NCBI GenBank assembly: GCA_035601635.1 | Contig: DATNNY010000654.1 | Location: 1-58,361 of the forward strand | DNA length: 58,361 bases | Source: Pyrinomonadaceae bacterium | GTDB taxonomy: Bacteria; Acidobacteriota; Blastocatellia; Pyrinomonadales; Pyrinomonadaceae | Direction: 5' to 3' | Shown here: one piece after another, positions 1 through 49,455 of the stretch | Position numbering within the stretch: position 1 is the first letter of the stretch | Layout of the letters: every line of letters starts with the position of its first letter | Notes under the pieces: model-generated | Database searches by the model: none | What the model saw: the letters and a program-made list of their open reading frames with translations, nothing else | Told to the model about the DNA's origin: nothing | Translations under genes and position numbers: made by a program

Positions 1-747
1 CCGCAGCTCAATCGTTACTAAACCGCCGCTCTCTGACGACAACTTGCCGGCATGGACCGCCGCATTACAGATCGACGAATCGAGGGTGTAAATGTCGGTG
101 CCCCACACCGAGCTTTCTTTGCCACCAGGGGGACATTTGAATTTGTAGGTCTTGCCGGTTTCGACGCTGAGCGCTGAAGCCGACGTGTTCCAGAGCACAG
201 GTGTCTGGTCATCGGCTGCTCGCACTACCGCCTCAGTGTTTGGAGTTTTGAAAACGAAGCTGTGCTGATACGAACCGAAAGCGCTGGTGGTCACGCCGTT
301 TCTTTCGCTGGTGCCATAAATGGTCCGGCCCGGGCGCAATTCGATGGTGACCGCGCCGCCTTGCTGGTAGGTGATCAATCCGCTATGAACACCGGCCGTG
401 CAGATTGATGAATCAGCCGTATAGATGTCGCTGCCCCAAACCGCATGCGCTGCGCCTCCCGGCGCGCACATCAGCGTAAACGTCTCTCCGTCTTTGCCGT
501 TTAGCGACGCGGCGTTGGCTTCCCAGGTCGTTGGTGTGCCTGCACCGGCTGAAGATGGCGGCGCAGAAGGCGAAGTGTTTGAGTTGTCTGGTGAAGTACT
601 TGTGTGGCCACCGCCACTCGCGCTGTTTTCATTTCTCAGTTTTGAGCAACCGGCGCTGCCGAGCACGATTGCGGCCAGCAAGAGCCCAACCCAGCGGCCG
701 ACGATCCTTCGCTCGATGCGGAAGATTGATTGGTACGATGGTGTCAC
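1..747 (-). CDS. LCCL-domain lipoprotein (C-terminal end runs off window start)
   Basis: Absent from the ORF track. I translated the minus strand by hand: GTG at 747, frame open to base 1 (249 codons). N-terminus is VTPSYQSIFRIERRIVGRWVGLLLAAIVLGSAGC (signal peptide plus lipobox). Two LCCL-like signatures follow: WGSDIYTADSSICTAGVHSGL and WGTDIYTLDSSICNAAVHAGK. Confidence 0.7.
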   Translation of the reverse strand, partial: MTPSYQSIFRIERRIVGRWVGLLLAAIVLGSAGCSKLRNENSASGGGHTSTSPDNSNTSPSAPPSSAGAGTPTTWEANAASLNGKDGETFTLMCAPGGAAHAVWGSDIYTADSSICTAGVHSGLITYQQGGAVTIELRPGRTIYGTSERNGVTTSAFGSYQHSFVFKTPNTEAVVRAADDQTPVLWNTSASALSVETGKTYKFKCPPGGKESSVWGTDIYTLDSSICNAAVHAGKLSSESGGLVTIELR

Positions 748-1164
748 GTAGACGGATCCTTTCGTCTTGCCAGGTTTAATGAGCGGGGTGCAGTGAGTAT
801 ACCAGTCAGATGAATTGTGTGAAACGACCGCGTCGAATCGGTTGTCCGTCATGAGGCCCCAAGGGCCGTCACGCGATAGCCACGATCAGGGTCCGGAATG
901 TTGAAATCAACCGGAGGTCCGAATTAACGGCATTACTGTCGCGCATGTCGGCCCTTCGGGCCTTGTTGTTTTTGGACGGACGACCCCGACCTGACGGTTG
1001 GGGCTATTTCATGTCGGCGCTTCGCGCCTGATCAATACGAAAGCGAACCACGCCGGCCCGACCACCGTATTACCTGGCGTCAACAGGGTATTCACCGCCT
1101 TACAATATTTGCGGCCGCCGTACGTCTACAGTAATGGTTTGATGAGCTGTCGAGCACCCGCCAG

Positions 1165-1746
1165 ATGAACGAGCAAGGCTTCGACCAGGATCGGCAAATC
1201 TCTGAAGTCATCGCGGCAGAACGATCCCGGCTGCGCAATTTCATCCGCCGGCGCGTGGCCGATCCGCGCGACGCTGAGGACATTCTGCAGGACGTCTTCT
1301 ACAAGCTGGTGGAAGCGAACCGCCTGCTGATGCCGATCGACCACGTGACCGGCTGGCTGTTTCGCGTGGCGCGCAATCGCATCACGGACCTTTTCCGGAA
1401 GCAGAAGACAGAGAGCTTCAGCGACTCGAGCGTAGAGGACGAACAAGGCGAACTGCTTCGGCTCGAAGATCTTCTGCCATCGCCGGATGCGGGACCAGAA
1501 GCGCTCTATGTCCGCCGAGTACTGCTCGATGAGTTGGAACTTGCTCTCGAAGAACTGCCTAATAATCAACCGATGAGCCAGCGTGAAGTATTCATTGCTC
1601 ACGAACTCGAAGGGCGCAGCTTCAAAGAGTTGTCGGCGGAGAGCGGCGTTAACACTAACACGCTACTCGCGCGCAAGCGCCACGCGGTCCTGCATCTACG
1701 CCAGCGACTGCAGAGCATTTACGACGAGTTTACCAGTAATGGCTAA
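1165..1746 (+). CDS. ECF-type RNA polymerase sigma-70 family factor
   Basis: 193 aa. Region 2-like DAEDILQDVFYKLV and WLFRVARNRITDLFRK. Region 4 HTH is REVFIAHELEGRSFKELSAESGVNTNTLLARKRHAVLHLRQRL. Confidence 0.9.
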   Translation: MNEQGFDQDRQISEVIAAERSRLRNFIRRRVADPRDAEDILQDVFYKLVEANRLLMPIDHVTGWLFRVARNRITDLFRKQKTESFSDSSVEDEQGELLRLEDLLPSPDAGPEALYVRRVLLDELELALEELPNNQPMSQREVFIAHELEGRSFKELSAESGVNTNTLLARKRHAVLHLRQRLQSIYDEFTSNG

Positions 1747-1907
1747 GTTGAAACGCACTGCGTTCTCTGCGAAGACCTCGGCGCTCTCTGCGGTTGAGCG
1801 TTCTTGAAGGTGTTATTAACCGCACGGGCCACAGGGGATTTCGCAGAGGGACGCAGAGAAGAGCGAGATTAGATCACGAGCAGTTAAAACAGGTGAGGAA
1901 ACACAAC

Positions 1908-2246
1908 ATGAAAAAGAGAATGATTTGGATGGCTCCCGCGGCGATCCTGGGGATGGTGGTCTTCATCACGATTGGCGGCACAGTAGTGATGCTTTTGTGG
2001 AATTGGCTGGCGCCGGCGTTGTTCGGATTGCGGTTAATTACCCTCTGGCAGGCTATCGGATTGCTGGCTCTCTGCCGAATTCTGTTCGGAGGCTTTGGTC
2101 TTGGTAGTGGTCATCGCTCCAGTTCGCGAGGGCGAATGGGCGAACGCTGTAAGCCGATGACGCCGGAGGAACGGGAAAGAATCCGCCAGGGACTTCATGA
2201 TCGCTCGAGGCAGACGGCGCCGCTGGATTCGAATCCCCGCGACTGA
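1908..2246 (+). CDS. small membrane protein downstream of the ECF sigma (possible membrane partner/anti-sigma, unproven)
   Basis: ATG at 1908 is preceded by GAGGAA. MKKRMIWMAPAAILGMVVFITIGGTVVMLLWNWLAPALFGL gives two hydrophobic helices followed by a basic tail. The ORF-track start at 1794 is probably too far upstream. Confidence 0.45.
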   Translation: MKKRMIWMAPAAILGMVVFITIGGTVVMLLWNWLAPALFGLRLITLWQAIGLLALCRILFGGFGLGSGHRSSSRGRMGERCKPMTPEERERIRQGLHDRSRQTAPLDSNPRD

Positions 2247-2307
2247 TTGCGGACCGATCTGCTTTGCACGAACGCTTGATTCAATGCACGGACAGGGAGG
2301 AACGAGT

Positions 2308-3051
2308 ATGAGCACATCTATAACGCTGGAACGGATCGCAGAAGCATCGCCACGGCTGAAGGCCAGGATTGCCGGCGGTTTGTGGTTGCTCTGCATCATA
2401 GCAAGCGTCGGGGGCTTCATCGCTGCGGCTCCACTAATAGTGGCCAACGACGCAGCGGCTACGGCGAAGAACATTCTGGCGAACGAATCACTGTTTCGTC
2501 TCGGATTTGCCGTCGATTTGACTAGCGGCTTGTCCTATTTGGGGGTCACAGTCTTCCTCTATTACGTGCTGAAACCCGTCAGCAAAAGTCTCTCACTGCT
2601 GGCGGCGTTCTTCGGCCTGGCAGGCGTCGCGATCGGAGCCCTCGGGTGGGTCAGTCATCTCGCGCCTTTGGTTCTATTGCATGGTGATCAATACCTGAGT
2701 GCGTTCACATCGAGTCAGTTACAAGCGATGTCGATGGTCTCTCTCAAGCTGCAGATGCAGGTCTTTAGCATCGGCATGGTATTTTTCGGAATTCAGTGCA
2801 TCTTGATGGGATGCCTGGTTGCGCGATCGACGTTCCTGCCACGCATCCTGGGCGCACTCCTGGCAATCGGCGGCACAAGTTACGTAATCGCCTCTTTTGC
2901 GAACTTCTTATTACCACTGTTCGGCGCACGCCTAATACCTTTCATCATGCCCGTGGCGCTGATCGGCGAAGGATCGCTGAGCCTGTGGCTCCTCGTTAAG
3001 GGCGTGAACGAACAACGATGGTACGAGCAGGCCGGCGCAGCGGGGATTTGA
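2308..3051 (+). CDS. DUF4386-family integral membrane protein (paralog 1)
   Basis: ATG at 2308 follows GGGAGG. Motifs RIAGGLWLL, NDAAATAKNILANESLFRLG, FLPRILG and GEGSLSLWLLVKGV match the DUF4386 consensus as I remember it. Confidence 0.8.
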   Translation: MSTSITLERIAEASPRLKARIAGGLWLLCIIASVGGFIAAAPLIVANDAAATAKNILANESLFRLGFAVDLTSGLSYLGVTVFLYYVLKPVSKSLSLLAAFFGLAGVAIGALGWVSHLAPLVLLHGDQYLSAFTSSQLQAMSMVSLKLQMQVFSIGMVFFGIQCILMGCLVARSTFLPRILGALLAIGGTSYVIASFANFLLPLFGARLIPFIMPVALIGEGSLSLWLLVKGVNEQRWYEQAGAAGI

Positions 3052-3152
3052 CCGCAAGCGCAATGCATTCTTGATTCGATCAGTCGCTCAGGAAATGAAG
3101 AGCGTTCAACGCTGAAAGGCTTGTCGACCGCGAGATATAAGGAGACAGAGTC

Positions 3153-3851
3153 ATGCACCCCACCAAAAAGGCCGCACGCATAGCAGGAGCGCTATATCTA
3201 TCCATGGCTCTCTTTGCTCCCTTCAGCCTGATCTATATTCCCAGGACCATGATCGTGCGCGGGGACGCAACTGCGACCGCCGGCAGGATCCTCGATCACC
3301 AGACGGTTTTCCGCCTCGGCATCGTCGCTGAGCTGATGTCTTCCCTGATTTTCATCTTCCTGGTCCTGGCTCTCTACCGTTTGCTCAGCGGCGTCAATCA
3401 GACGCATGCTTCGTTGATGGTGGTCCTGGTCCTGATCGCGGTCGCCGTCGGGTTTGTGAATGTGTTGAATAACGTCGCGGCCCTGACGCTCTTCCGCGGC
3501 GAGAATTTCCTCGCGGTATTCGACAAACCGCAGCGGGACGCGCTGGGCATGTTGTTCCTCAGCTTGCATCGGCAGGGACTTCAGGTTGCCGAGATCTTTT
3601 GGGGCCTGTGGCTTTTCCCCTTCGGCGTACTGGTAATGAGATCGGGCTTCCTTCCCCGGATTCTGGGCGTCTGGCTGATCGTCAACTGCTTCCCTTATCT
3701 GGCCCTCAGCCTTACGGGCTTACTGTTCCCGCAATACCAGGAGATGGTTTATCGCATCGCCTTCCCCGTTCTGTTCGGAGAGTTGGCGATCGCGCTGTGG
3801 CTTCTGATTAGGGGCATAAAGGTGCAACCATTGGCCGCCGCGGCCTCTTAA
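3153..3851 (+). CDS. DUF4386-family integral membrane protein (paralog 2)
   Basis: 232 aa with ARIAGALYL, GDATATAGRILDHQTVFRLG, FLPRILG and GELAIALWLLIRG. Confidence 0.85.
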   Translation: MHPTKKAARIAGALYLSMALFAPFSLIYIPRTMIVRGDATATAGRILDHQTVFRLGIVAELMSSLIFIFLVLALYRLLSGVNQTHASLMVVLVLIAVAVGFVNVLNNVAALTLFRGENFLAVFDKPQRDALGMLFLSLHRQGLQVAEIFWGLWLFPFGVLVMRSGFLPRILGVWLIVNCFPYLALSLTGLLFPQYQEMVYRIAFPVLFGELAIALWLLIRGIKVQPLAAAAS

Positions 3852-3926
3852 TCGAGCGGTCGTGGCGTCATACTCACTTGATTGAGTCGCTACGCATTTT
3901 GATCTTTAGGCATAAGGAGAAGTCGG

Positions 3927-4601
3927 ATGACTCGCACCACGAACGCCAGGATCGCCGGCGCCACATTCCTGCTCTACATCGCGGTCGGCATAGCCGGTGT
4001 GATCCTGTTCGGCCGGGCGACCAGCGGAGACGGGATCGCGGTCAAGCTCGCGAGCATCGCGCAGCACACGACAGAGGTCCGCGTCGCGGTGGTGCTCTCG
4101 CTGCTCACTTGCTTTACGGCCCTCGTGCTGGCCGTGACGTTGTATGGGATCACGCGCGACCAGGATCCCGACCTCGCGATGCTGGCCCTGACCTGTCGCG
4201 TCGCCGAAGGCTTGCTCGGTGCGATCTTCCTGCTAGCGACGCTGGGACTGCTGTGGCTCGGGACGACCGCTGGAGCAAATGCCCCGGACGAGAGGGCGGC
4301 GCGGGCGCTCGGCGCGTTTCTTCTTAAGGTGCAGAGTTGGAGCACGATGATCGGGGCGATCTTCTTCGCCGTCGGCAGTATGCTCTTCTCCTACCTTTTG
4401 CTGCGCGGCCGAATGATTCCCGCGGCACTCGCATGGCTCGGGGTGATCGCGTCGGTGCTGCTCGTTGTGGGCCTTCCCGTTCAGCTCTCTGGATTCTTCA
4501 CCAGCCCGGTTTTCGGGCTGATGTGGTTACCGATGCTCGTGTTCGAGTTGACGCTCGCGCTGTGGTTGCTCATCAAGGGAGTAGCAAAAAGAGCGGTCTA
4601 G
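3927..4601 (+). CDS. DUF4386-family integral membrane protein (paralog 3)
   Basis: 224 aa with ARIAGATFLLYI, RMIPAALAWLG and FELTLALWLLIKGV. Same architecture as the two preceding ORFs. Confidence 0.8.
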   Translation: MTRTTNARIAGATFLLYIAVGIAGVILFGRATSGDGIAVKLASIAQHTTEVRVAVVLSLLTCFTALVLAVTLYGITRDQDPDLAMLALTCRVAEGLLGAIFLLATLGLLWLGTTAGANAPDERAARALGAFLLKVQSWSTMIGAIFFAVGSMLFSYLLLRGRMIPAALAWLGVIASVLLVVGLPVQLSGFFTSPVFGLMWLPMLVFELTLALWLLIKGVAKRAV

Positions 4602-4663
4602 GCAAACTGGCAAAGGCGCGGGAATGTGAAAGGAACAGTGTCCAGGTTGGTTTCGTCGTCCTA

Positions 4664-4785
4664 GGTTCTCATAGTTATTGAAATCTGGTCGATGAGATTA
4701 CAAGAACTTACAAGACTTTTCTCACAGTTAGTGAATCCCGATTCTCATTGTTAGTGATTTCCTGCTTACAAATTCTCGTTGTTCT
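4664..4785. repeat. Tn7-like left-end repeat block, copy A (three putative TnsB-binding sites)
   Basis: Sites are at 4664-4684 (GGTTCTCATAGTTATTGAAAT), 4717-4738 (TTTTCTCACAGTTAGTGAATCC) and 4740-4761 (GATTCTCATTGTTAGTGATTTC). The block aligns along about 125 bp with 11917-12040. Confidence 0.6.
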
Positions 4786-4838
4786 CGAGTTCAGTGTCAC
4801 CCAAGAGACAAACTAGGGACGTGGCCTACTGAGAATTA

Positions 4839-4929
4839 GATTTCAATAACTATAGTGCGGTCAATCTTCAACACTTTAGAAGAATTTTCTCACAGTTACT
4901 GAATCCGGATTCTCACCTGTTATTGATTC
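4839..4929. repeat. second, partial set of Tn7-like end sites (right-end-like site plus two left-end-like sites)
   Basis: ATTTCAATAACTATAGTGCGG (4839-4860) resembles the middle right-end site TCACTAACTATGGTGCGG. TTTTCTCACAGTTACTGAATCC (4886-4906) and GATTCTCACCTGTTATTGATTC (4908-4929) repeat the inner left-end sites. Confidence 0.5.
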
Positions 4930-5251
4930 TTATCGGCCCAACTACATCAGTTAATGCCGCTGGCTTCGCCCACCAATCTTCCGATCTAAATGGATTGCTC
5001 CTGTCACCAGGCGAGGCGCAACCGCTTTGGTATTCTTGCGCAGTTCTTTGCTATTGACAGATTTCTTCTGGGGCAGTAGAGTGTCGAAGCTATAAGCCAG
5101 CGGAGTTTTCGGCGGCGTTTTGAAGTTTGTCCCCGTTGACTGCGATCACCGCTTCAGCATCACACACTTCAGCTGCCCTCTCATCCTGCGACAGCCGCGA
5201 GTCCAACAAGGATAATATCGTCGATGGCGAGCAGGTCGCATTTACCAGCTT

Positions 5252-7483
5252 TTGACCTTGGCAATCGCTATGGCCTCACAGCATAACTTTCACGCTTCCC
5301 TAAAGAATCTTCTTCTGCCCGACCTTCGCGGCATGCGTAAGTGGGTGCTGATTCTGGGCTACATCGTTCTTGCAGCAGCCTTATTGGGAGTCGTCTACGT
5401 TCGTTTTTACGAACGGTTCAGCATGAACGAGTGTAAGAGCGATGGGCCGCAGAAGAATTGCCAGCAGCAACTTACTGCGGTTGAAGTTCCGCCGGTTAAG
5501 ACAGCAGCAAACCATTCAGGGATGTTCCCAGCGGGCGATCTGCTTACGGGAAGCTTCTTCCCGAATGTTCGACAGGCAACTGTCGCGAGTCAGCATTCTG
5601 TTCGTTACGCGCATCATCATACGCAACCAACTGGAAGCGAACAGATCAAAGCAGAAGACGGAACTGAGGAATCAAATTCAGCCAGTCTGTCGACGAATGT
5701 TCTACTTCCCGTTACGAGTGGCGTTGCGCAACCTGAAGCTTCGCCATCGCCCTCATTGCAGGCGCCACAAGATGCGACGCCAAAGTCGGCAAGTAAAAAT
5801 AAGAAACCTAACGCAATCAAACGGTTTGTCTTTTGGCTATGGAGTCTCTTCGCACCCAGGACGCAGTCTTTCATACCTGGCTTACCATCTCTGACATTTT
5901 CACCGTCAAGTTCCGCAAGCCCTTCAACCACGGTTCGGCTGCACTGTTTGCGCGGCAGCCCATGCGTTGTACAGTTTGGCGATTTGCGGGAATTCTACCG
6001 ACCTACATTCGAAGTAACCACGGGCGAAATACGGAAAGAACGTGGGGCGATGATTTGGGATCTTTCGGGAACGGAATCGGGTCTCTATGAGATGCGGATG
6101 CAGTTCGCAGGAAGTAGCAGAAAAGCTTTCGTAGCGATCGAGTGTCCGGATTGCGAGACTGGGCCGACGCCGACCCCAACACCACAGTCCACCCCTACAC
6201 CCCTGGCCACCCCGACGCCGATCCGGACGCCCACGCCAACGCCGACACCCACGCGGACACCAACGCCGCAACCGACGCCGACTCCAGTATGGACCCCAAC
6301 ACCATCGGCGACACCAACTGTGGCGCCGCCATCGCCAACGCCGGCGCGCACCCCGACGGCAGGACCAACGCCGGCCTGGACTACATCGCCAACGCCAACG
6401 CCTTTTGCAACCCCAAGCGGTTCGCCTGCAACTTCGGCAACGCCTCTACCTTTGCAGGAGACTGACTATGCGAATCAATCGTGGCCCGAAAAACTTCCCA
6501 AAGCCTGGGACAGTTACATTACGGTTGAGTTTCAGAGAACCTATGGACCGAAGGAACGACCAACCCCATCGCAATCCCCCGGTATTGTTTCAAGCTCGAC
6601 TCGCCTTCCCATCGTTCCCGGCGGGGAAGGAAATCCCGATAACGAGTTGTATGAAGCTTCTGCTTCAGTGGAGATAGCAAACACGAGCGACCTTGAAGCA
6701 CTACCGAATGGTGATAACGGAGACAAGTCGCTCGACGGGCGAAGACTCGTGCAGTGGACAATTCCGTTTAGATTGAAGAGCAATGTTACTCAACAGCGGG
6801 CTTTCGAGCTAATTTTCAACGTCAAGCTAACAAATAAGAAGACCGGCCAGTCGAAAACCACGTCGTACCATCTCGCGCCAGCATCAATCAAGGTGCACTG
6901 GATTCCGGGAACCAAGCTGCAAGCCTATGGTCTCTTTGGAACCCTTTTCCCGTTTTCATTCGCAATGATAATTTTTCCTGCAATAAAAGTTCAGTTCGGC
7001 GCCCTGGCGGGGCTCGGGCAAGAAGACGGCCAGTTGGCGAGCACGGGAGAATCCGTGATCGAGGAAGAAAACGTGCTCCACGCCAACCTTTGGCTTGAGG
7101 ACAAGGACAAGAGACCAATCCCGCCACCTCTCAGTCTCGAGTGGGGATCTGAGTATCGTCTGCTGTTTGCGATCGAGCCTGAGCTTAGAGAGTTCCTGAG
7201 CAGCAGCCAACTATTCATTGAGCCGCCTGAGCTTCAAAAAAGCCGGAGCACTGATGTCGAAATCCAGGTGATGAGTAGGTTGCTGAGAACCAAACTCGGA
7301 TGCGAGACGCGTAAGGTCGCATATTATTCAGGCAGGGGATTCGCACCTGAAGCTTTCGACATTGCGCCAGTTGCCGAGGGCTGGTACTCAATTACGGTTC
7401 GCCTCTTCTATCGAGAAACCATCATTTATCGCGAGAAAATAGAGGTGGAGGTAAAGGGCGCAACGAGAGCGGCGCGCGCTTGA
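5252..7483 (+). CDS. membrane-anchored protein with a long Pro/Thr linker and a C-terminal domain shared with the downstream kinase
   Basis: 743-aa ORF. The real start may be ATG at 5270 or 5333. N-terminal TM helix is WVLILGYIVLAAALLGVVYV. A (T/S)P-rich linker lies around 6160-6450. The C-terminal roughly 130 aa are homologous to residues encoded at 8430-8825. Confidence 0.7.
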   Translation: MTLAIAMASQHNFHASLKNLLLPDLRGMRKWVLILGYIVLAAALLGVVYVRFYERFSMNECKSDGPQKNCQQQLTAVEVPPVKTAANHSGMFPAGDLLTGSFFPNVRQATVASQHSVRYAHHHTQPTGSEQIKAEDGTEESNSASLSTNVLLPVTSGVAQPEASPSPSLQAPQDATPKSASKNKKPNAIKRFVFWLWSLFAPRTQSFIPGLPSLTFSPSSSASPSTTVRLHCLRGSPCVVQFGDLREFYRPTFEVTTGEIRKERGAMIWDLSGTESGLYEMRMQFAGSSRKAFVAIECPDCETGPTPTPTPQSTPTPLATPTPIRTPTPTPTPTRTPTPQPTPTPVWTPTPSATPTVAPPSPTPARTPTAGPTPAWTTSPTPTPFATPSGSPATSATPLPLQETDYANQSWPEKLPKAWDSYITVEFQRTYGPKERPTPSQSPGIVSSSTRLPIVPGGEGNPDNELYEASASVEIANTSDLEALPNGDNGDKSLDGRRLVQWTIPFRLKSNVTQQRAFELIFNVKLTNKKTGQSKTTSYHLAPASIKVHWIPGTKLQAYGLFGTLFPFSFAMIIFPAIKVQFGALAGLGQEDGQLASTGESVIEEENVLHANLWLEDKDKRPIPPPLSLEWGSEYRLLFAIEPELREFLSSSQLFIEPPELQKSRSTDVEIQVMSRLLRTKLGCETRKVAYYSGRGFAPEAFDIAPVAEGWYSITVRLFYRETIIYREKIEVEVKGATRAARA
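6163..6440. repeat. low-complexity Pro/Thr-coding repeat (TPTPTP...)
   Basis: Translated as TPTPTPQSTPTPLATPTPIRTPTPTPTPTRTPTPQPTPTPVWTPTPSATPT. This region generates several spurious alternate-frame ORFs. Confidence 0.9.
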
Positions 7484-10141
7484 AAGTTCTCCTGCTGACG
7501 AAGGCGAGGTATTCGCGTCTCTGCCTTTTTGGCTCATTCGTTCACGAAAGGTTAAAGGATATTCGTTCGAAAATAAGAGACTACCGGATCATAAGTGAGC
7601 TCGGGAGGGGCAGCATGGGTGTCGTCTATGTCGCCGAACACCTATCGCTCGGTCGCCTTGTGGCGATAAAGACTCTTAACCTGAAAGCTGCGAAGGAAGA
7701 ACCGAATTTCCGCAAACGCTTCTTGCGCGAAGTTCGCACAATTTCGGCTCTTTCCCATCCGCAAATCGCGGCAGTTTACGATTACGGAGAGACCGAGGAT
7801 GGAGAACCCTTCCTCGTCATGGAACTGGTCAGAGGCGAGACCCTCAGCGATCTCATCTCGACAGACTTTCTCACAATTCCGCGCTCCCTCGACATCACTA
7901 GACAGGTAACTGAAGCGCTGTCCGTAGCCCATCGCCATGGTGTCATCCATCGCGACAGGTGTCATCCATCGCGACATTAGACCCGCCAATGTGATGGTCA
8001 AACCGAGCGGAGAAGTGAAAGTTATGGATTTTGGTATCGCTAATCTGCGGAAGCCCGGGGAGACCCCACGTTACGGAAAGCAGTCGACCGACGTCCGCGC
8101 AGTTCGTAGCGCAATGAATTATGCGGCACCTGAGCAGGCATTGGGCGAGCCGCTCGACTCGCGCGTCGACGTTTTTTCGACCGGTGTTTTGCTCTACGAA
8201 ATGTTGACGGGCAGATTGCCTTTCCGGAACGCGCTCCTGAACGAGGAACCACCGCGTCTGACTGAGGTCAGCTCCGGACCGACGCCCGAAGGCTTGCAGC
8301 AAGTCTTGAACCGCGCTCTAGCAAAGGATCGTGGGGCACGCTATCACGATATTATGGAGTTCAAGGACGATCTGAACTCGGTCATGCGGCAACTCGAAAG
8401 GAGCTATGCGAGCAAGGCTGAAACATCAGACGAGAATATTCTGCACGCTAATCTATGGATCGAGGACGATTATCGTGAGCCGGTGTCGCAACCTCTGATT
8501 ATCAGCACTAGCGACGCGTACTTCTTATTGTTCGCTATTGAGAACAAAGTCAGAGAGCGCATTAGCAGTACCCAATTATTCGTTGAGCCGGAGTCGCTGC
8601 AAGAGAAGCCTATATCGGTCGTGGAAATTGTGGTTTCAACCGATCTCTTGAAGGAAGCGACCGGCCAGGAGACCCGTCAGGTTGAATACTATGCAGGGAC
8701 CGGCACTCTTCCTGAAGCTTTCGCGCTCTATCCTAGAGTCGAAGGGCGTCACCCGGTAACCATTAGACTCTTCTATCGACAGACCATTCTCTACAGAGAA
8801 CGATTCTGTGTGGACGTCATTGCCCGTCTCAATCAGGCTCATACAGAGACACTGATCATGCCACGAACTCAGGAGGTAGCTTATATGGCTAATTTCGATG
8901 AATTCATTCAGCCTAACTTGACGTTGACGCTGGACCTCGACGGCAATTCTCTTTATTTGAGTTATCGAACTCCTGGGAACGAAAGGAAGGATCGAATCCG
9001 CCTACCCGTGCCGCCGGATCAAATCACCGACCCGGTAATCCTGATGCGAGAGGAACTCTCAAATTGGGCTAAGAAATACGAAGAGGTTCTGGATAAGGAC
9101 AAGAAAGATAGGTTGAGTTGCGATCCTGTAAAAATCAAAGATATGTGGACGTACCTGGCTCAAGAAGGACAGAGACTATACAGATTAATTTTTGATCTCG
9201 ACGACCAAACCGATCTTAATCTGGTCAAGCTAGCTGAAAACATCAAGGAACGGCTCGAGCCGGAATCAACAATAGAGATTGACGCGAGTCAAGTGCCTAT
9301 CCCATGGTCGATGTTGTTCGATGATGAGATCCCTTCCGTTGACGACCCGCTTTATCTCGAAAAGTTGCTCCCCCATTTTTGGGGCATTCGCCATCAGCTC
9401 ACAGTCCACCCGCCTTTAGGCACCAACACGTTCAATAACAAGCCTTACCTCGCGAACACTGATGGCACGAGACTTACGATCGGGGTTAATAAACAGACCG
9501 ATCTGGAATATCAGACCGGCCAAATGACTTTCTTTCAAGGCATGGAAGAGAAATTCAAGCAACTAACGGATCCAGAAAAGAGGTACTTGTTAATGCTCGG
9601 CACCTCCAAGGAGCAGGTGATATCGAGCTTGACTAAACGGGAGGAGCCGCAACATCTCTACTATCTTTTTTGTCATCACGAAAAAGGCGAAGGCGAGATC
9701 ACGATCTACGGAATTTCTGACAAGCTTAAGAAGACCCAGATCATTATGGAAGGGCAGCAGCAAGGCGTAATTACTCTCCAGGAGTTATCTGACAACCGTG
9801 CGATCCGCCCGTTTCGTTCTCCGCCCGTAATTTTTCTAAACGCCTGCCAGTCCAGCAAATTAAAGATGGGCGATCCGACCTCGTTTATGACTTACTTTAT
9901 CAGGCGCTTGGGATCCTGGAACTTCGTGGGTACTGAAGCAGACATCCCAGCGCCGTTCGCCGATGCCTTTGGGCAGCGTTTCGTAAAGGAGTTTTTGAAG
10001 GGCAAACGAGTAGGTGAAATCCTATTCGATTTCAGGAAAGACTATGCGCGTCGGTATTTCAATCCTTTTGGTCTCTACTACACGCTGTTCGGGCGAGGTG
10101 AAATTCATCTGCAGAATCCGGTTGCGGGAGTAACGCCATGA
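7480..10141 (+). pseudogene. Ser/Thr protein kinase - CHAT (caspase-like) fusion, frameshifted by a 19-bp tandem duplication
   Basis: ORF 7480-7980 has GRGSMGVVYVAEH, AIK and HRHGVIHRD, then terminates. ORF 7937-10141 restarts at GVIHRDIRPANVMV, DFG and APE. The C-terminus has a CHAT-like His/Cys pair (YYLFCHHEKGEG and VIFLNACQSS). Removing one 19-bp copy restores a single frame. Confidence 0.8.
7939..7976. repeat. exact 19-bp tandem duplication GGTGTCATCCATCGCGACA x2
   Basis: Read directly: 7939-7957 equals 7958-7976. It lies on the HRD catalytic-loop codons. Confidence 0.95.
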
Positions 10142-11502
10142 CGCGCCACTACGTAATCAGTGATTTACACCTCGGCATGGGTCGAATAAATGAAACGGAA
10201 TGGCATCCGCTTGAAGATTTCAAGTCGGACGAAAGTTTTCACAAATACCTCGACTTCATCGACAAGGATGGAGGCGATGAACTGATTATCAACGGCGACT
10301 GGATCGATTTTATGCAGTTAGAGCCGTTAGCGTATGATCCCGATCACCTGCACTACTCGGAAGACGGTCACATTCTAGGATGGACCGAAAAGGATTCCCT
10401 GGCCAAGTTAGAGAGCTGCAGAGCTCAACTTGCACATAAAAACTTCTTTGACGACCTGCGGCATTTCCTTAGTTCTGGAAAGAAATTAACGATCATCATG
10501 GGAAACCATGATCCCGATCTGTTCTGGCCGGGTGTTCAGGCTGAAATTATCAGCTATCTGAATCCGCCGGAGAAGGATCGCCTCGAGTTTTCCCAAACTT
10601 TTGTCCGTCGGGGCACCGCTCATATCGAACATGGTAATCAATACTGTTCGCCTGAAAACAGATTCTACAATCCTCAGAACGTTTTTCATCGCAGCACTGA
10701 AGACAACCTCGAACGGCTCGAAATGGCGTGGGGCACCATCTTTGTGATGGAATTCTTTAACTCGATTGAGGAAGAGTTTCCTTTTGCCGACAACATCAAG
10801 ACGCAGGTACGAGCCATTTGGCTGGGGATTAAGAATGGCTGGGTTGGCGGTAAGATGGCCGCTAAGTTCGTAAAGTTTATGATCAGCGCCGGCATTCCCT
10901 GGAGCTCCATTACAGCGAATGTTTTAGGGCCGAAAAAAACAGCGCCTCATCAATTGATTCAAAATCTTGGCGAGCCCGCAATCACCGCCGAGCTGCTGAA
11001 AAATTACGGATCCAATCCTGCTTTTAAGAAAAGCTTTGACGATGAAATAGCTCGCACCACTAATGCTGAGTGGCGAACTCTCCAGCTGCAAAATGTCCGA
11101 AATGCAGAGCTATCCGGACCTGACAAAAGACCTGTTACAGCCGCTGAACTTACGCCGGATCCGGCTGGCAGTCCGGTGATGGGTGTCTTTCGCGATGAGC
11201 CTGAGTTTCGAGGCGCCACCGAATTGTTGAAGCGAAATCGAGGAGGTGAGGTGATTTTTGGTCACACGCACACGGAGATTGACGGCAAAGATCCTAAAGC
11301 CAAAGTGAAAAATTATTTTAATACGGGAACGTGGGTCGATAGTCTTGATCTTTCTCAACCGGGGAAACGCGAGATTCTCAAGAACATAAAAGGACCAGAC
11401 CTAAAGAACGATGCAATCTTCGATCTGCGGTTAAGACAAGTCATTATTGATCTCGACGACAACAATGCTACTCGAGTATCTTTGGAACCTATTAAGCCTT
11501 AG
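10138..11502 (+). CDS. calcineurin-like metallophosphoesterase
   Basis: 454 aa with ISDLHLG, NGDWIDF, GNHDPD and FGHTH motifs. The start overlaps the upstream stop (ATGA). Confidence 0.8.
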   Translation: MTRHYVISDLHLGMGRINETEWHPLEDFKSDESFHKYLDFIDKDGGDELIINGDWIDFMQLEPLAYDPDHLHYSEDGHILGWTEKDSLAKLESCRAQLAHKNFFDDLRHFLSSGKKLTIIMGNHDPDLFWPGVQAEIISYLNPPEKDRLEFSQTFVRRGTAHIEHGNQYCSPENRFYNPQNVFHRSTEDNLERLEMAWGTIFVMEFFNSIEEEFPFADNIKTQVRAIWLGIKNGWVGGKMAAKFVKFMISAGIPWSSITANVLGPKKTAPHQLIQNLGEPAITAELLKNYGSNPAFKKSFDDEIARTTNAEWRTLQLQNVRNAELSGPDKRPVTAAELTPDPAGSPVMGVFRDEPEFRGATELLKRNRGGEVIFGHTHTEIDGKDPKAKVKNYFNTGTWVDSLDLSQPGKREILKNIKGPDLKNDAIFDLRLRQVIIDLDDNNATRVSLEPIKP

Positions 11503-11862
11503 TCACTTAGTCTCACAGAACAAACCTAGAATCATTTGATCGCCTGGATAAGGCGCGCCAGAAGCAAGACGCCACTCTCGAGTGAACCAAGTGTCGGTTG
11601 CTATTCCGGCAGTCGATTTGTTGATTTCTTGTAATGATGGAATTAATGCCCGAAGTCTCTACTTATGGGTGGACATAAACGCGGGATACTTACAGTGTGT
11701 ACTGTCGGAAACGAGCAGTTCGTGCGCCTTGTCTTGATCGTGCAGCATGCGTGAACGTGTTTTCTGGTCGTTCATTATGTGAGGGAGATTATAGATCGGC
11801 TGCCAGCAATGCAGATATTGGCGGGACGGTACGAGAGAACAGATCGACGCGCCGTGGCGTGG

Positions 11863-11907
11863 AATCACTAACTATGGTGCGGATTTCACTAACTATGAGA
11901 ACCGACA
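11863..11907. repeat. Tn7-like right-end sites, copy B (end of element 1)
   Basis: AATCACTAACTATGGTGCGG then ATTTCACTAACTATGAGAACCGACA. Nearly identical to 49408-49452. Confidence 0.6.
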
Positions 11908-11916
11908 TCGTCTCTA

Positions 11917-12040
11917 GGTTCTCATACTTAATGAAATTTCGCTGGCTAAGATACAACAACTTACAGGAATCTTCTCAAAGTTAGCGCGTCCAGATTCTCG
12001 TAGTTATTGATTTTCTTCTGTTCAATTACCGTTGTTCATA
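11917..12040. repeat. Tn7-like left-end repeat block, copy B
   Basis: GGTTCTCATACTTAATGAAAT (11917-11937), CTTCTCAAAGTTAGCGCGTC (11971-11990) and GATTCTCGTAGTTATTGATTTT (11993-12014). Colinear with 4664-4785. Confidence 0.6.
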
Positions 12041-20276: not shown

Positions 20277-21548
20277 TCATTGGTAGAAGCTCGAGGTGTC
20301 CGCACTTGCAGATTCTAGATGAATGCCTGTGGAGTCAAAATACCCCGCAAACTTTCCTGGATATTGATCTCTTATTCCACCTTCGGGGTCATGCGCTTGT
20401 AACGTTACGTGTAGATCGAGCGTTCCACGAAAACTGATTCGGTTTTCGGCCTTTGAAAAGTTAATAGAGGAAACTATTACTTGGTCAATAACCGTTACAA
20501 AGGAAATGGAATCTAGGTCATCTCCAAGATCGTAATCATGCGGATCGTCGTCGAGCTTTTCTTCTACAAATTTAGAGATTTTGAAACCAAACATTTCCTC
20601 AATGGAATCTTCGTCTTCCAGACCGGAGGCTAGTTTGAAACAGTCTTCGAGTGGAATTGAGGCTCGGTAGGTATCGAGGGCAAACTGGATTGCGTTATAG
20701 CGAAGATCGGGGTCGAGGTGATGCTCAGCCAACGCTAATATGTACAAGTAACATTCTTCTCGATAGGCAGCGTACAATCGTGCGAGCATCGACATGAAAG
20801 CATCGAACTCAATTCCTTCAGTTGAGTTAGCAGCCTGGACGGGGTTACCTTCCATGATCAAGATTTGGATTACGTTATCGATAACTCGCGCCGAAGGAGC
20901 GTCATACGGCCAAATTCGCGAACCCTTCAACTGAAATCCAGAATACGGCCTGACAAGGCGAAGCACTTCATCCAAAACAGCCTCTGGAAGCTCGTCACGG
21001 AAGTTGAAAACGGCGCCTTCAAGTGAGGTCAGCCCCTTCACTCGCTTGTAGCTTTCGGGGAAGAACTGTTGGAGAAGGTCGTGATATTCAGGCTGAAGAA
21101 GAATCCTGGTCAGTTCGGATTTATCCCAAACCCACGTATAAATGTCTCCACCGTTGCTCTTATCCAAGTTGTCTAACATTTGCTTGGCAGCAACACCGGG
21201 AACTGTTGTGGTTACCAACAGAAAGCCATCAGCGCGATGTTGAGCGAGCTTATCCTTTATTGAAGGAAGATCAGATTCGGTCACAGATTTGCCGCTAGTT
21301 GCGTTGTCCTTACAACTGACCAGCCATCTGAGTCTTTGAGTGCTGAGGTTTCCGAGTAAAACTTCGGTAAATAGCAGGTCCTTTCCTCCATCCGGACCCC
21401 GGCCCGACCAGATAGGTGATAATTTCTTCTTAAACCCAATCTGGCGGGCCAAATCTTGCAGACCTTCGCCTGGAACCGATGATACCAACTCGCGGAAGTC
21501 AATCAGGTTAGAAGATCTAAGCATGATGAATGATGATCGGCGCGCCAA
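20277..21548 (-). CDS. Mrr-like restriction-endonuclease-domain protein with an unknown C-terminal module
   Basis: N-terminal GRGPDGGKDLLF...WLVSCKD...GFLLVTTT matches the Mrr_cat pattern (G-x-D-G-G-x-D ... Q/S-C-K). The C-terminal roughly 300 aa are uncharacterised. Confidence 0.65.
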   Translation of the reverse strand: MARRSSFIMLRSSNLIDFRELVSSVPGEGLQDLARQIGFKKKLSPIWSGRGPDGGKDLLFTEVLLGNLSTQRLRWLVSCKDNATSGKSVTESDLPSIKDKLAQHRADGFLLVTTTVPGVAAKQMLDNLDKSNGGDIYTWVWDKSELTRILLQPEYHDLLQQFFPESYKRVKGLTSLEGAVFNFRDELPEAVLDEVLRLVRPYSGFQLKGSRIWPYDAPSARVIDNVIQILIMEGNPVQAANSTEGIEFDAFMSMLARLYAAYREECYLYILALAEHHLDPDLRYNAIQFALDTYRASIPLEDCFKLASGLEDEDSIEEMFGFKISKFVEEKLDDDPHDYDLGDDLDSISFVTVIDQVIVSSINFSKAENRISFRGTLDLHVTLQAHDPEGGIRDQYPGKFAGYFDSTGIHLESASADTSSFYQ

Positions 21549-21807: not shown

Positions 21808-24291
21808 TCAGTGCTTCAATCTCAGCGAATCGCGAATTCTTTCCACGTCTGTTTTCAAATACCGGCTTCGACCGTATCCGTCGACATTCGGCCCTGATAC
21901 TCTTTCCAGTACTCCTTTTTTCACTAATCTGTTAAAGACGCCCTTGGTTAGCTGAAGAATCTCCGCAGCAGCTTTTGCTCCGACACGATTCCTATGTGTT
22001 TCAACGAACGCGTCAAGGTCTTCCTCTACGATATAAAAACAGTGAAGGTGTTTTTCAGATTGTATAGCTGGCAGTGCTCCGCGCAGAATTGCCTTTCTAA
22101 GTGTGCTCACAACTATTCCGACGCGTTTCGCGGCAATGTAGATAGACAGAAGTGATGCGAACGGGAGTTTTCTACGTCTGCACTCGCCGACTAATTCGGG
22201 CTGTAGAAAATATCGATTTCTGGTGGACGGCCGACGGTACCGAATCGAAGATCTTAAGAACCCGTTTTGGACCATGCGGTGAGCTGAATCTTCGTCGATG
22301 CTAAGCGCGCTGCAAACTTCTTTGAGGTCAAGGCTGCAGGTGGGCACCGTCGAGTGGTCCGTGGCTCGATAGTTTGAAATAAGCTCCCGTAAATCAAGGT
22401 TTGCCAAGTCGACTTGGCTAAAAATATATTGAAGGCCTCCGTCAATTGTCCGTCCTGAGATGGGATGGATATTCTTGTCCCGGAGAACCGCAACAATGTA
22501 ACCCGTATCGGTATCCAGTTTTTTCGCAATGGTCCTTGTAAGCACAACATACTTCACGCTGAACGCACTAACATCCTCGCTATTTATGAAACGGCCGAGG
22601 GATTCAAAACCCGGAATTAGTTTGGCGTTCAGCAAACCCTTGTTGGCAAGAAAATATACTTCCATTAGATTCGTTTTGAGCAACTGAGCAGTTTCTTCAA
22701 GCGAATGCACTTTGCCCGTGAATCCCTGCATCTTACCGCGAGCAAAATCTGCGATCTCGACCGCTGAGAAAAGGATACTAGATAGCACGGGTTTTCTGGT
22801 TTTGCTGCTGATATGTACTTCACCGTCAAAGACAGCTTTGATTAGGGTTCCGCAGTGACCGCCGGCTCGTCTTACGGTCTGAAGAGCATTGCGAAGGGTC
22901 TTTGTTTGATCAGACTTCTGGGTTCGCGCAACCACCGATTCAGCCAGACGAGTTAAGAACAAATCGATACTTGCAGAGCTAAATCGCCACTCGTGATTTC
23001 CCTCGATTACTGGACCGCGTATCGGGGTTAACAACTTGCTTTCGACAAGTTCAATCAACCGCTTCGCATGAGTTCCCAATTTGTGAGCTGTTTGATTAAG
23101 GCACATTGAGTCTTTCAATTCGTCTCGTAGGTTAATAACACTCTCTGCTTCAATTAGTAGTAATCGGGACTCGCCGGTTTTCTTAGCTTCCGTAAGTTTT
23201 CCAGCCGCGATTAGTTTCTTGATACTTCGAGGTGTAACGTTAAGGATCTGTTTTGCCTCCACTACGGTTAGATACTTCCTTTGAGCGGTATTGCTCAGAC
23301 GGGACAATGTCGTCGGGTAACCGCCGCGCCACTGAGTCGCAATATATTCTTCGAAACCCTCTCGTAAGAAGTCATAACAAGGGTCGGCTAACTGAACGTA
23401 GAGAGCAGATTTGTACTGACCGAAGTCTCTTCTTAACCCTCGTCCATGTCTGCTATCCGGATTGTTTTCGCGTTTCCAATCGAGAAATGAGAAAAAGTTG
23501 TTGGGCCAATTTTGGAATACTTTGTAGGCTTTGGCGATAAGTGAGTGAATCTCTTTGTTGCGAAATGAGTTTGAAATCCGCTTGCCTCTAGTATCCATTA
23601 ATCCTTGGAACTGGCCGACAATGAAAAACAGAGCGGATAACAATTGACTAAGACTCAAGGTTGTAAGAGGACATTCGGCGTCGACCTTGCTTTTGGATGG
23701 ATCTGCTTTTATTAGGTTGCATAATTGGTAAATTCTTTGTGCTACGTGCAGTTCGTCATTTGTAACTTGCTGGCCTTTCCACGATCTCCAATCGAATTCA
23801 CAGACACAAGTGGCAATTGCAGTTCGACGCCAACCGATTCTTTGGTTGCATCGCGGACATCTATCAAGGAGTACACGTCTATGTAAGGGACATGCAGTGA
23901 CAGCAGCGAATTCCCAGATTTTTCGCGCGTAAAGGCGTTCTCTTAAACACTCAGGACAGATTTTAGATTCACAAACTCGAATAGTGTATCGAGGAACGGG
24001 GTTACCGAATAACGAGTAGTCGTGCAGTGTTCCTGCGCGGTTAACCGGCTCGTACCAAAGGTCCCTCAGTGCAGATTCAGAGACGCCAGTCAATATCTGG
24101 AGTTGTTGCAGGTTCCACACGCTAATGGACGACAGTGAGAAGTCCCATCTATTGGTCGGAATCTTTGCGAGATCCAGAATCCATGTGATGACATCGTACT
24201 GGTTGAGTTCGGTCAGTCTAAGCACGAAACCAGGAAGACTCTCATCGGCATAGGGAGTTGCTGAGAAAACCAGCCTTTGATTGTTTGTCAT
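21808..24291 (-). CDS. tniQ: TniQ/TnsD-like target-selection protein with multiple C-terminal HTH modules
   Basis: 827 aa. N-terminal TniQ signature is PYADESLPGFVLRLTELNQY plus a Cys cluster (CPECL...CPLH...CPRCNQ). At least six HTH_17/MerR-like segments follow, for example YLTVVEAKQILNVTPRSIKKLIAAGKL and GAKAAAEILQLTKGVFNRLVKKGVL. Confidence 0.85.
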   Translation of the reverse strand: MTNNQRLVFSATPYADESLPGFVLRLTELNQYDVITWILDLAKIPTNRWDFSLSSISVWNLQQLQILTGVSESALRDLWYEPVNRAGTLHDYSLFGNPVPRYTIRVCESKICPECLRERLYARKIWEFAAVTACPLHRRVLLDRCPRCNQRIGWRRTAIATCVCEFDWRSWKGQQVTNDELHVAQRIYQLCNLIKADPSKSKVDAECPLTTLSLSQLLSALFFIVGQFQGLMDTRGKRISNSFRNKEIHSLIAKAYKVFQNWPNNFFSFLDWKRENNPDSRHGRGLRRDFGQYKSALYVQLADPCYDFLREGFEEYIATQWRGGYPTTLSRLSNTAQRKYLTVVEAKQILNVTPRSIKKLIAAGKLTEAKKTGESRLLLIEAESVINLRDELKDSMCLNQTAHKLGTHAKRLIELVESKLLTPIRGPVIEGNHEWRFSSASIDLFLTRLAESVVARTQKSDQTKTLRNALQTVRRAGGHCGTLIKAVFDGEVHISSKTRKPVLSSILFSAVEIADFARGKMQGFTGKVHSLEETAQLLKTNLMEVYFLANKGLLNAKLIPGFESLGRFINSEDVSAFSVKYVVLTRTIAKKLDTDTGYIVAVLRDKNIHPISGRTIDGGLQYIFSQVDLANLDLRELISNYRATDHSTVPTCSLDLKEVCSALSIDEDSAHRMVQNGFLRSSIRYRRPSTRNRYFLQPELVGECRRRKLPFASLLSIYIAAKRVGIVVSTLRKAILRGALPAIQSEKHLHCFYIVEEDLDAFVETHRNRVGAKAAAEILQLTKGVFNRLVKKGVLERVSGPNVDGYGRSRYLKTDVERIRDSLRLKH

Positions 24292-24328
24292 TTATTCCGA
24301 CGGAATTGCGGCAACCTCCAATAATGAC

Positions 24329-29746: not shown

Positions 29747-29774
29747 ATATCCACGGTCGGGCTTGAAAATGTAA

Positions 29775-43582: not shown

Positions 43583-43627
43583 GGAAGAGGGTCTTTCAAA
43601 GGATTACCACCACTCCTTAAGCGAAAT

Positions 43628-49452: not shown

Positions 49453-49455
49453 TCG

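Follow-up and report, generated by a model that had tools for sequence, protein, structure and literature searches.

A candidate CHAT protease–metallophosphoesterase conflict operon as the sole cargo of a predicted non-autonomous Tn7-like element in a Pyrinomonadaceae bacterium

Linked protease and effector genes with swappable sensors represent a defence logic that has been shown experimentally (Evans et al., bioRxiv 2025, PMC12642450). Metallo-β-lactamase (MBL) nuclease, α/β-hydrolase, Pepco and EACC1 effectors are zymogens that are licensed by site-specific cleavage, and an enzyme resembling a metallophosphoesterase (MPE) is listed among the uncharacterised protease-associated effectors, with reference to Krishnan et al. 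2020 (PMC12642450). Metallophosphatase domains are also required for defence in DS-8 and DS-9 (PMC13092281). Here we describe an operon of a Pyrinomonadaceae bacterium in which a divergent CHAT (caspase/separase-fold) protease is coupled to an MPE. It lies in contig DATNNY010000654.1 of assembly GCA_035601635.1, of which positions 1 to 58,361 were analysed (the window; coordinates refer to it unless another locus is named). We regard positions 5054–11627 as one operon that encodes a modular protease–effector conflict system, probably an anti-phage abortive-infection system, on a non-autonomous Tn7-like element, and we put the probability of this reading at roughly 0.6. The logic of a protease, a latent effector and a variable sensor is already known, and the linkage of proteases with MPEs has been noted computationally. 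What is new is an adaptor domain, here called X, the kinds of sensor that carry it, the pairing of CHAT with MPE as a subject to be studied, and the presence of the cassette on a non-autonomous Tn7-like element. Text searches of the literature found no description of a CHAT plus MPE system, of the X domain, or of HsdR or RpoA fusions to such a module.

Four forward-strand open reading frames (ORFs) make up the operon, at 5252–7483, 7480–7980, 7937–10141 and 10138–11502. The 4-bp overlaps at 7480/7483 and 10138/10141, on which the original prediction had based translational coupling, are as given there. The window encodes a membrane protein ending in X (gene 1), a kinase followed by X and CHAT (gene 2), and the MPE. 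The original prediction had seen in these genes a kinase–protease–phosphoesterase trio and had asked whether the trio co-occurs in other genomes. We collected contigs encoding relatives of the CHAT protein or the MPE and mapped the window domains onto all of their ORFs, which gave 13 distinct loci. X, a domain of about 130 amino acids (aa), lies directly upstream of CHAT, or is fused to it, in all 13, and an MPE gene lies directly downstream of CHAT in 11, mostly with a 4-bp stop/start overlap. The kinase is missing in eight of the 13 loci and the membrane protein in nine. Judged from these arrangements, the conserved unit appears to be X plus CHAT, accompanied by MPE in most loci. The expected linkage in other genomes was thus found, but the trio is not the unit that is conserved, and the domain shared by its first two members had been missed.

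The loci differ mainly in the protein that carries X. The order is membrane protein–X, kinase–X, CHAT and MPE in L001-3, and membrane protein–X, kinase–X and CHAT, followed by proteins of 128 and 818 aa, in L004. L005 has only membrane protein–X and CHAT, with the same pair (818 and 122 aa) in convergent orientation. Kinase–X is followed by CHAT in L007, where the contig ends, and by CHAT and MPE in L008, a Pyrinomonadaceae metagenome-assembled genome (MAG). CHAT and MPE are preceded by an RpoA-like protein–X in L006/L010 and L016, by hsdM, hsdS and HsdR–X in L013/14, by an HSP20-like protein–X in L017, and by an unknown protein–X in L009, L012 and L015. L011 likewise has an unknown protein–X before CHAT, within which its contig stops, and in L018 an N-terminal region, X and CHAT are fused in one protein that is followed by MPE. 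CHAT and MPE genes are adjacent in 11 of the 13 loci across varied sensor contexts, and the X-bearing partners are of six or more kinds. The pair of 122–128-aa and 818-aa genes beside CHAT occupies 8757–11599 in L004 and 7927–10751 in L005, matches nothing in Pfam, NCBIfam or PADLOC, and may be an alternative effector. In L005, a further CHAT protein of 719 aa and its 555-aa partner (508–4346 of that contig, minus strand) are divergent from, and lie directly upstream of, the membrane protein–X and CHAT genes.

In the window, X forms the last ~130 residues of gene 1 (~7067–7453) and recurs between the kinase and CHAT domains of gene 2 (8432–8818, plus strand); the two copies are paralogous, and an X hidden Markov model (HMM) matches the C-terminus of gene 1 at E 1e-48. 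A single-sequence phmmer search with the window X reached HsdR (1.2e-20), the RpoA-like protein (2.9e-21) and the HSP20-like protein (2.1e-14), and X HMMs made before L016, L017 and L018 had been added found the domain there at 1e-43, 1e-37 and 1e-15. PADLOC identifies the HsdR carrier as a genuine type I restriction subunit (REase_I, 6e-42); the RpoA-like carrier has RNA_pol_L, A_bac and A_CTD domains and the HSP20-like carrier an HSP20 domain. In larger CHAT proteins X is present in cis, immediately N-terminal to the CHAT domain (HMM E 1e-15 to 1e-19), and hhalign places it at template columns 173–298 (97.6%, E 4.5e-12) and CHAT at 324–711. One fused X–CHAT protein, that of L018, likewise has an MPE next to it. 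Because X and CHAT belong to one protein in some genomes and to separate proteins in others, a physical interaction between them is expected (the Rosetta-stone argument). X has no match in Pfam, PDB sequences or PADLOC and nothing usable in NCBIfam; its sequence pattern suggests a β-rich domain.

The CHAT protease itself (418 aa; 8885–10141, plus strand) is strongly diverged. The Pfam CHAT model (PF12770) does not match the C-terminal 568 aa of gene 2 even at E ≤ 10, and the closest relative, P0010, scores 17.8 bits against that model, below the cut-off of 24. With the 568 non-kinase residues of gene 2 as query, a word-indexed search across 5.8 billion protein clusters matched only eight other proteins, five of which are stand-alone proteins of 380–424 aa that cover the C-terminal 64–73% of the query. 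When a CHAT-family profile was built from six members and run exhaustively with HMMER against 1.84 billion representatives (E ≤ 1e-3), it gave 3495 matches, and Pfam CHAT was present in 62 of 65 that were sampled (best 6.9e-31). Alignment of the window CHAT family with CHAT proteins by hhalign (100% probability, E 2.2e-67) places FCHHEKG opposite YCHA and LNACQS opposite LNACES. These two motifs, encoded at 9668–9688 and 9836–9853, contain the His and Cys that had originally been picked out as catalytic (predicted codons 9674–9676 and 9845–9847); C-H-H and N-x-C are invariant in the CHAT family alignment, and the predicted dyad appears intact. An AlphaFold2 model from a 131-sequence alignment has a predicted local distance difference test (pLDDT) score mostly above 90 over residues 160–574, and its best Foldseek matches in the PDB include separase (5fc2_B, 1.7e-10), Csx29 (8eex_B, 2.9e-10), SAVED-CHAT (8tl0_B, 3.6e-5) and caspase-9 (9e-5), as well as Csx29/TPR-CHAT (7y9x_B and 8d9f_A), the CHAT domain of DdvA, and caspase-3. 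Profile, alignment and predicted fold together support the proposed identity of the C-terminal part of gene 2 as a CHAT protease, though the Pfam model itself fails. NCBIfam and PADLOC yielded nothing usable for this part, the CHAT profile had no significant match among PDB sequences, and a plasmid collection contained no relative of either the CHAT protein or the MPE.

The MPE (454 aa; 10138–11502, plus strand) carries the motifs DxH (10159–10176), GD (10291–10311), GNHD (10501–10512), H (10624–10638) and GHTH (11257–11274). Pfam Metallophos (PF00149) matches it at E 1.5e-6 with 29.2 bits, above the gathering cut-off of 21.5, so that its description as a calcineurin-like phosphoesterase stands, and residues D9, H11, D54, N123, H124, H165, H376 and H378 show little or no variation across 23 homologues. 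These motifs are of the nuclease/phosphodiesterase type. PPP protein phosphatases, in contrast, have the motifs GDxHG/GNHE. A PPP-type protein phosphatase opposing the kinase was therefore rejected, also since the MPE is present in kinase-less loci. There are about 35 close homologues, labelled LpxH by JGI; we rejected this identity because neither an LpxH model in NCBIfam (E ≤ 1) nor an LpxH entry in the PDB matched, and it is disfavoured by the context as well, the MPE being surrounded by CHAT and defence genes, not by lipid A genes. The only NCBIfam matches (E ≤ 1) were weak and N-terminal, to TIGR00024 (SbcD-related) and TIGR04123 (PdeM), and neither the MPE sequence nor an MPE profile had a significant match among PDB sequences. 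Between motif IV (H165) and motif V (GHTH, residues 375–378) the MPE has an insert of ~210 aa, which holds a loop variable in both length and sequence (residues ~315–345) and then a conserved LGxFRDxPExRxA motif. A long insert with a variable loop is compatible with a zymogen. The MPE is better conserved than CHAT: 87% versus 61% identity to L001, and 57% versus 39% to L008.

Gene 2 is altered at two points in the window copy. The kinase N-lobe (7480–7980, plus strand; G-loop 7600–7629, VAIK 7660–7677) ends at a premature stop caused by a frameshift, and the C-lobe is encoded at 7937–8431 (plus strand; HRD 7961–7990, DFG 8024–8041, APE 8120–8137). In the codons of the HRD loop the 19-bp sequence GGTGTCATCCATCGCGACA is present twice in tandem with 100% identity (7939–7957 and 7958–7976), and dropping one copy gives a single ORF of 2643 nt (880 aa). 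The two fragments match Pfam Pkinase (PF00069) at E 2.5e-22 and 9.1e-21, which bears out the original call of a Hanks-type kinase, and the repaired protein has the VAIK Lys, the αC Glu, the HRD Asp, the Asn and the DFG motif. Its catalytic loop, HRDIRPAN, has Arg in place of the usual Lys, as in the L004 and L007 homologues. The reading frame in the window is split inside this loop, and the kinase of this copy is predicted to be inactivated by the duplication. The second alteration lies at the old intergenic junction (8869–8887, plus strand). In L001 the kinase–X gene ends in ...CATAGGAGCATCCACATG, within which lie a TAG stop, a ribosome-binding site (GGAG) and the start codon of CHAT; the window counterpart, ...TCAGGAGGTAGCTTATATG, has CAG in place of the stop, and its spacer keeps the frame. 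The kinase and CHAT are separate genes in the four other kinase-bearing loci (L001-3, L004, L007 and L008), and the fusion is a local stop-codon loss peculiar to the window locus. The kinase–CHAT fusion gene first described is neither a single ORF in the window nor a general feature of such loci. Because the Shine–Dalgarno sequence AGGAGG and the ATG at 8885 are retained, a stand-alone 418-aa CHAT could still be translated despite the upstream frameshift. The remainder of the window copy resembles the natural kinase-less version of L005, with membrane protein–X and CHAT.

Gene 1 (5270–7483, plus strand; 737 aa) has homologues in L001, L004 and L005. Its start was placed at ATG 5270 by alignment with the L001 homologue, and TTG 5252 is probably not the start. 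Two hydrophobic segments (residues 21–47 and 552–583; TM1 at 5342–5401 and TM2 at 6923–7018) are kept in all three homologues and are separated by ~500 residues that include a Pro/Thr linker (~6161–6463). This linker is encoded by 12-nt periodic repeats, and P, T and S make up 68% of residues 290–400. The protein is most likely a two-pass membrane protein; the Pro/Thr linker that had been proposed is borne out, and the single-pass topology is probably incorrect. Its N-terminus probably lies inside the cell, the large loop outside and X in the cytoplasm, the last because the partners of X are cytoplasmic. Gene 1 belongs to no Pfam family (E ≤ 10), and NCBIfam and PADLOC gave nothing usable; an NCBIfam match to GltJ was rejected as low-complexity Pro/Thr sequence.

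Upstream of gene 1, a putative promoter (TTGACA-17-TAGAGT, 5054–5082, plus strand) is the best consensus match in the region, with 10 of 12 positions, and is followed by a leader of ~190 nt that is conserved with L001; TTGCTATTGACAG and the operon leader align with that locus. The leader (5103–5270; 674–840 in L001) is far better conserved with L001 than are the first three coding regions, and one block of ~70 nt (GAGTTTTCGGCGGCGTTTTGAAGTTTGTCC...CTTCAGCATCACAC) is nearly identical, as against protein identities of 59%, 48% and 61% for those regions. A small ORF in the leader was ruled out, as insertions and deletions relative to L001 disrupt the frame; an Rfam search of the leader gave no match, and its RNA-folding z-score of −1.56 is not significant. 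At the other end of the operon lies a putative terminator (11593–11627, plus strand), a hairpin (11593–11617) with a T-tract, recognized from consensus only.

The element that carries the operon, E1 (4661–11907, 7.2 kb), is bounded by ends of the Tn7 type. Its left end (4661–4764, plus strand) has a terminal 22-mer at 4664–4685 and TnsB-site-like repeats at 4719–4738 and 4742–4761, and its right end (11859–11907, minus strand) has two adjacent binding-site-like repeats, so that the sites, as recognized by sequence, are asymmetric, with three on the left and two on the right. The right terminus is 95% complementary to the left terminal 22-mer. A second element, E2 (11913–49452), follows immediately, and the terminal 22-mers at 4664 (+), 11903 (−), 11917 (+) and 49448 (−) are near-identical in the two elements and 95–100% intact. 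Both right ends finish in ...GAGAACCGACA (5'-TGTCGGTTCTC read inward, that is, 5'-TGT...) and then TCGTC. This pentamer is the left target-site duplication of E1 (4656–4660), is common to E1 and E2 at 11908–11912, and recurs after E2 at 49453–49457. The spacing of left-end sites, 0/+53/+76, is identical in E1 and E2 (11919, 11972 and 11995 in E2); the E1 left terminus has a 1-nt ambiguity (CTAGG versus TCTAGG in E2). A 20-mer consensus of the end repeats has ten matches in 58 kb, compared with 0.5 expected, and all lie within the four element ends (4666–4906, 11882, 11919–12014 and 49384–49446). Because of the matching ends and the TCGTC copies we take E1 and E2 to be two insertions at one 5-bp target, which overlaps the stop codon of a dCTP-deaminase gene (dcd, 49456–50022). 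Extra left-end material at 4838–4930, with an inverted partial terminal site (4838–4853) and a second copy of sites 2 and 3 (4887–4906 and ~4910–4930), may be what is left of a mini-element that has decayed, or else the end may have been partly duplicated.

E1 contains no ORF for tnsA, tnsB, tnsC or a target selector, and for this reason it is read as a non-autonomous Tn7-like element whose sole cargo is one operon, in agreement with the transposase-less element of the original prediction. Candidate genes for transposition in trans lie in E2 (21808–27297, minus strand) and encode TniQ with a helix-turn-helix (21808–24291), TniB/TnsC (24329–25393) and a TnsB-like protein with rve and Mu-transpos_C domains (25390–27297), which makes E2 the candidate helper of E1. 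DNA similarity between the window and L001 is limited to a stretch that begins in the leader (5103) and finishes at the MPE stop (11496). The end repeats of the window are absent from all fetched loci, and the Tn7-like element of L001 has unrelated end repeats. On these two grounds, derivation of E1 by deletion from an L001-type element was rejected. As the similarity ends with the cassette and the L001 ends are unrelated, a promoter-to-terminator cassette seems to move between Tn7-like backbones. There is no CRISPR array in the region.

The related loci lie repeatedly among defence genes and mobile elements, where the conflict-system interpretation already offered fits best. L013 is inside a type I restriction–modification operon (hsdM-hsdS-hsdR::X), L015 between a TIR/KaiC-like ATPase pair and genes for TIR-SIR2 and nSTAND1-WD40 proteins, and L017 near BrxL and a NACHT/DUF4062 protein; L006 is found among integrases and an Mrr nuclease, and L012 among transposases and a TPR-CHAT protein. 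Tn7-like genes adjoin L001/L002 (TniQ/TniB) and L016 (TnsD/TniQ), so that carriage by Tn7-like elements, which was expected to recur, does so in three of the 13 loci and is not obligatory.

In the mechanism that we propose, X would link a sensor protein to CHAT as a domain for docking or regulation, and disturbance of the sensor by a phage would free or activate the protease. CHAT would then cut a latent effector, most likely the co-translated MPE, in the insert between metal motifs IV and V, and the MPE would hydrolyse nucleic acid or an essential nucleotide and so stop the infected cell. This scheme leans on the published zymogen work on protease–effector modules (PMC12642450) and on the metallophosphatase requirement in DS-8 and DS-9 (PMC13092281). 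If X indeed separates what is sensed from what kills, sensors should be swappable at will, and the natural fusions to HsdR and to RpoA paralogues predict anti-restriction proteins and RNA-polymerase-modifying enzymes as phage triggers. More tentatively, and at clearly less than even odds, X may be a portable guard adaptor: appended to ordinary components (a restriction subunit, a spare RNA-polymerase α, a small heat-shock protein, a kinase or an envelope-spanning protein), it would turn each into a tripwire or decoy, so that tampering by a phage would act through a common CHAT protease to unleash the MPE zymogen. Such an adaptor would be a bacterial counterpart of the guard and integrated-decoy principle of plants, with a caspase-type cascade that is shuttled between Tn7-like transposons.

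Several points weigh against a protease–effector system of this kind. The substrate of the MPE and its cleavage by CHAT are steps that we infer, and the MPE has no informative relative in the PDB or NCBIfam. PADLOC 2.0 has no model for the CHAT, X or MPE parts, which agrees with the earlier remark that the trio is not a named system and means that no validated relative is available. In the AlphaFold2 model the X part has a pLDDT below 50, and contact between X and CHAT is thus not seen. L004 and L005 lack the MPE and have an unrelated pair of 122–128-aa and 818-aa proteins instead, and L018 is set beside housekeeping-like genes. The relatives are few, all from metagenomes or MAGs, phylogenetically narrow and at least partly Acidobacteriota; because the set is so small and narrow, the linkage could partly reflect shared descent. 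The window kinase is disrupted, and this copy may be decaying. The proposal that the cassette confers a self-contained, selectable function is not supported as it was put, the kinase being a pseudogene here, and function in defence is what we infer for it.

Decay deserves separate consideration, as it concerns the state of the window copy and not the identity of the system. That the cassette is a dead remnant in an old, immobile element is suggested by the frameshift from the 19-bp duplication, the lost stop between kinase and CHAT, the rearranged left end of E1, and the logic of tandem insertion, by which E1 would be the older of the two elements. We find it doubtful nonetheless: the duplication is perfect, which makes it recent and open to reversal by slippage; the other ORFs are all intact and retain their catalytic residues, CHAT keeps its own translation signals, a kinase-less version occurs naturally in L005, and the terminal repeats are well preserved and match those of E2. 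It is unlikely, in our judgement, that CHAT itself is the killing effector, acting by broad cleavage as in type IV Thoeris or effector-less caspase-like proteins, while the MPE is a regulator or accessory (for example, for signal removal or reset). Such a role would explain why L004 and L005 retain X and CHAT without the MPE, would agree with the intact dyad, and has a parallel in effector-independent caspase-like proteases that give phage resistance (PMC12642450). However, conservation is highest for the MPE, whose translation is coupled to that of CHAT in most loci; the cassette has neither a nucleotide cyclase nor another source of a signal; and another gene pair occupies the MPE position in L004 and L005, as effector swapping would give.

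Two further readings place the cassette outside immunity. The architecture of the window, with a membrane sensor, a Hanks kinase and a protease, would suit a module for signalling or regulated proteolysis, for example in envelope stress or in the death of cells during development, with the MPE as counter-enzyme; a link to stress has been discussed for HSP20-like and DnaK-like fusions in modules of this kind (PMC12642450), and L018 and L004 adjoin housekeeping-like genes. This seems decidedly unlikely in view of the hsdMSR operon in which a type I restriction subunit bears X, the repeated setting among TIR, SIR2, STAND and BREX genes and on transposons or islands, the patchy and rare occurrence (nine close CHAT relatives among 5.8 billion clusters), and MPE motifs that are of the nuclease/phosphodiesterase and not the PPP type. 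An addiction module, similar to a toxin–antitoxin pair and stabilising the transposon or island, is very improbable: the operon is the sole cargo of a mini-element, encodes potentially toxic enzymes and recurs on Tn7-like elements, but it includes no small, labile antitoxin-like partner, 10 of the 13 loci lie outside Tn7-like elements, and the swapping of sensors such as HsdR and RpoA paralogues would have no rationale.

The remainder of the window adds further features of the island. E2 is 37.5 kb long, has its tns genes in the middle of the element and not at the right end, and carries more defence-type cargo. Its TnsA-like ORF (31285–31932) is split from tnsB by an IS1595 transposase gene (28450–29436) and two tRNA genes, tRNA-Asp(GTC) and tRNA-Thr(AGT), at 29659–29848 (minus strand), of which the tRNA-Asp call, with 88 nt, is unusual; E2 may be composite or nested. 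A 1038-aa protein (39122–42238, minus strand) joins an N-terminal caspase domain (Peptidase_C14, E 8e-16) to a DEAD/Helicase_C helicase and is a candidate for a second, unrelated caspase-type defence gene in the same island. At 43004–46849 (plus strand), an IrrE-like M78 peptidase (192 aa) precedes a 1073-aa N6-methylase of the MmeI/Eco57I type, and the two look like a regulator with a type IIG or BREX-like restriction–modification gene. Next to tniQ, a 423-aa ORF (20277–21548, minus strand) has a weak match, just under the cut-off (E 6e-5), to a predicted pPIWI-associated nuclease domain. Beyond E2, dCTP-deaminase copies lie in tandem at 49456–50530 (minus strand): the full-length gene (49456–50022) has a G+C content of 0.49 and the upstream copy (~50160–50530), cut off at about codon 125, one of 0.51, whereas the flank has 0.575. 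Because the dCTP-deaminase G+C content is below that of the flank, the island may reach ~50.6 kb, and the attachment gene, too, may have come from elsewhere. Directly left of the insertion site are two tandem paralogues of a DUF4386 membrane protein (3153–4601, plus strand), and an Acido-Lenti-1 RNA (Rfam RF01687, 44 bits) occurs further out in the left flank (984–1029, plus strand). This RNA indicates a host among the acidobacteria (or lentisphaeral bacteria), and with Pyrinomonadaceae as the closest named relative an acidobacterium is the probable host.

How the proposed protease–effector operon and its carrier compare with described systems differs from part to part. E1 shares with the Tn7-like transposons that carry defence cargo (Benler et al. 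2021, PMC8649781) its asymmetric ends with repeated TnsB-type sites, the TGT terminus, the 5-bp duplication, insertion beside the dcd stop codon, defence-type cargo, TnsB, TniB and TniQ genes in the neighbouring element, and tandem insertion at one site; it differs from them in having no tns genes at all and a single operon as cargo. The locus would thus be a clean natural case of a non-autonomous Tn7-like element with one defence operon beside its likely helper, which bears on how defence genes spread. Among the PADLOC Ser/Thr-kinase models (PD-T4-6, Stk2-like, PglW and MkoA), the repaired kinase matches PD-T4-6 up to E 1.7e-79, but this match covers only the generic kinase domain (residues 30–310), such systems have no X, CHAT or MPE, and the kinase is dispensable in eight of the 13 loci.

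Craspase (type III-E, gRAMP/Cas7-11 with Csx29) is among the nearest solved folds to the CHAT part (8eex_B, 7y9x_B and 8d9f_A, E ~1e-10 to 1e-8) and is alike in its logic, in which a sensor keeps a CHAT protease inactive and the protease has a partner of its own to cleave, Csx30. In contrast, the window operon has no TPR repeats, Cas7-11, CRISPR array or Csx30/31, identity is ~10%, and activation cannot be RNA-guided. In the PrrC/EcoprrI system, an anticodon nuclease is latent on a type I restriction enzyme and is released when the phage T4 protein Stp inhibits that enzyme. The L013 arrangement, in which HsdR–X belongs to a complete hsdMSR operon and the CHAT and MPE genes come next, suggests a suicide effector that guards a restriction enzyme in a similar manner; the proteins are unrelated, however, an adaptor and a protease step intervene, and the window copy includes no restriction enzyme, so that PrrC is an analogy only.

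The closest likeness in organization is to the protease–effector modules (Evans et al., PMC12642450), in which protease and hydrolase genes are closely linked, their pairing is kept as the sensor is swapped, and the genes lie in defence islands. The MPE family of Krishnan et al. 2020 that is mentioned there may be that of the window MPE. The sensors of the described modules are STAND, ABC and retron proteins, whereas here they would be a membrane protein, a kinase, HsdR, an RpoA paralogue and an HSP20-like protein; the protease is of the CHAT/separase type, the effector would be an MPE, and coupling would run through the ~130-aa domain X, often on a separate polypeptide. If this interpretation is correct, the cassette is an uncharacterised branch of the protease–effector logic in immunity, for which experimental proof, with other effectors, is very recent.

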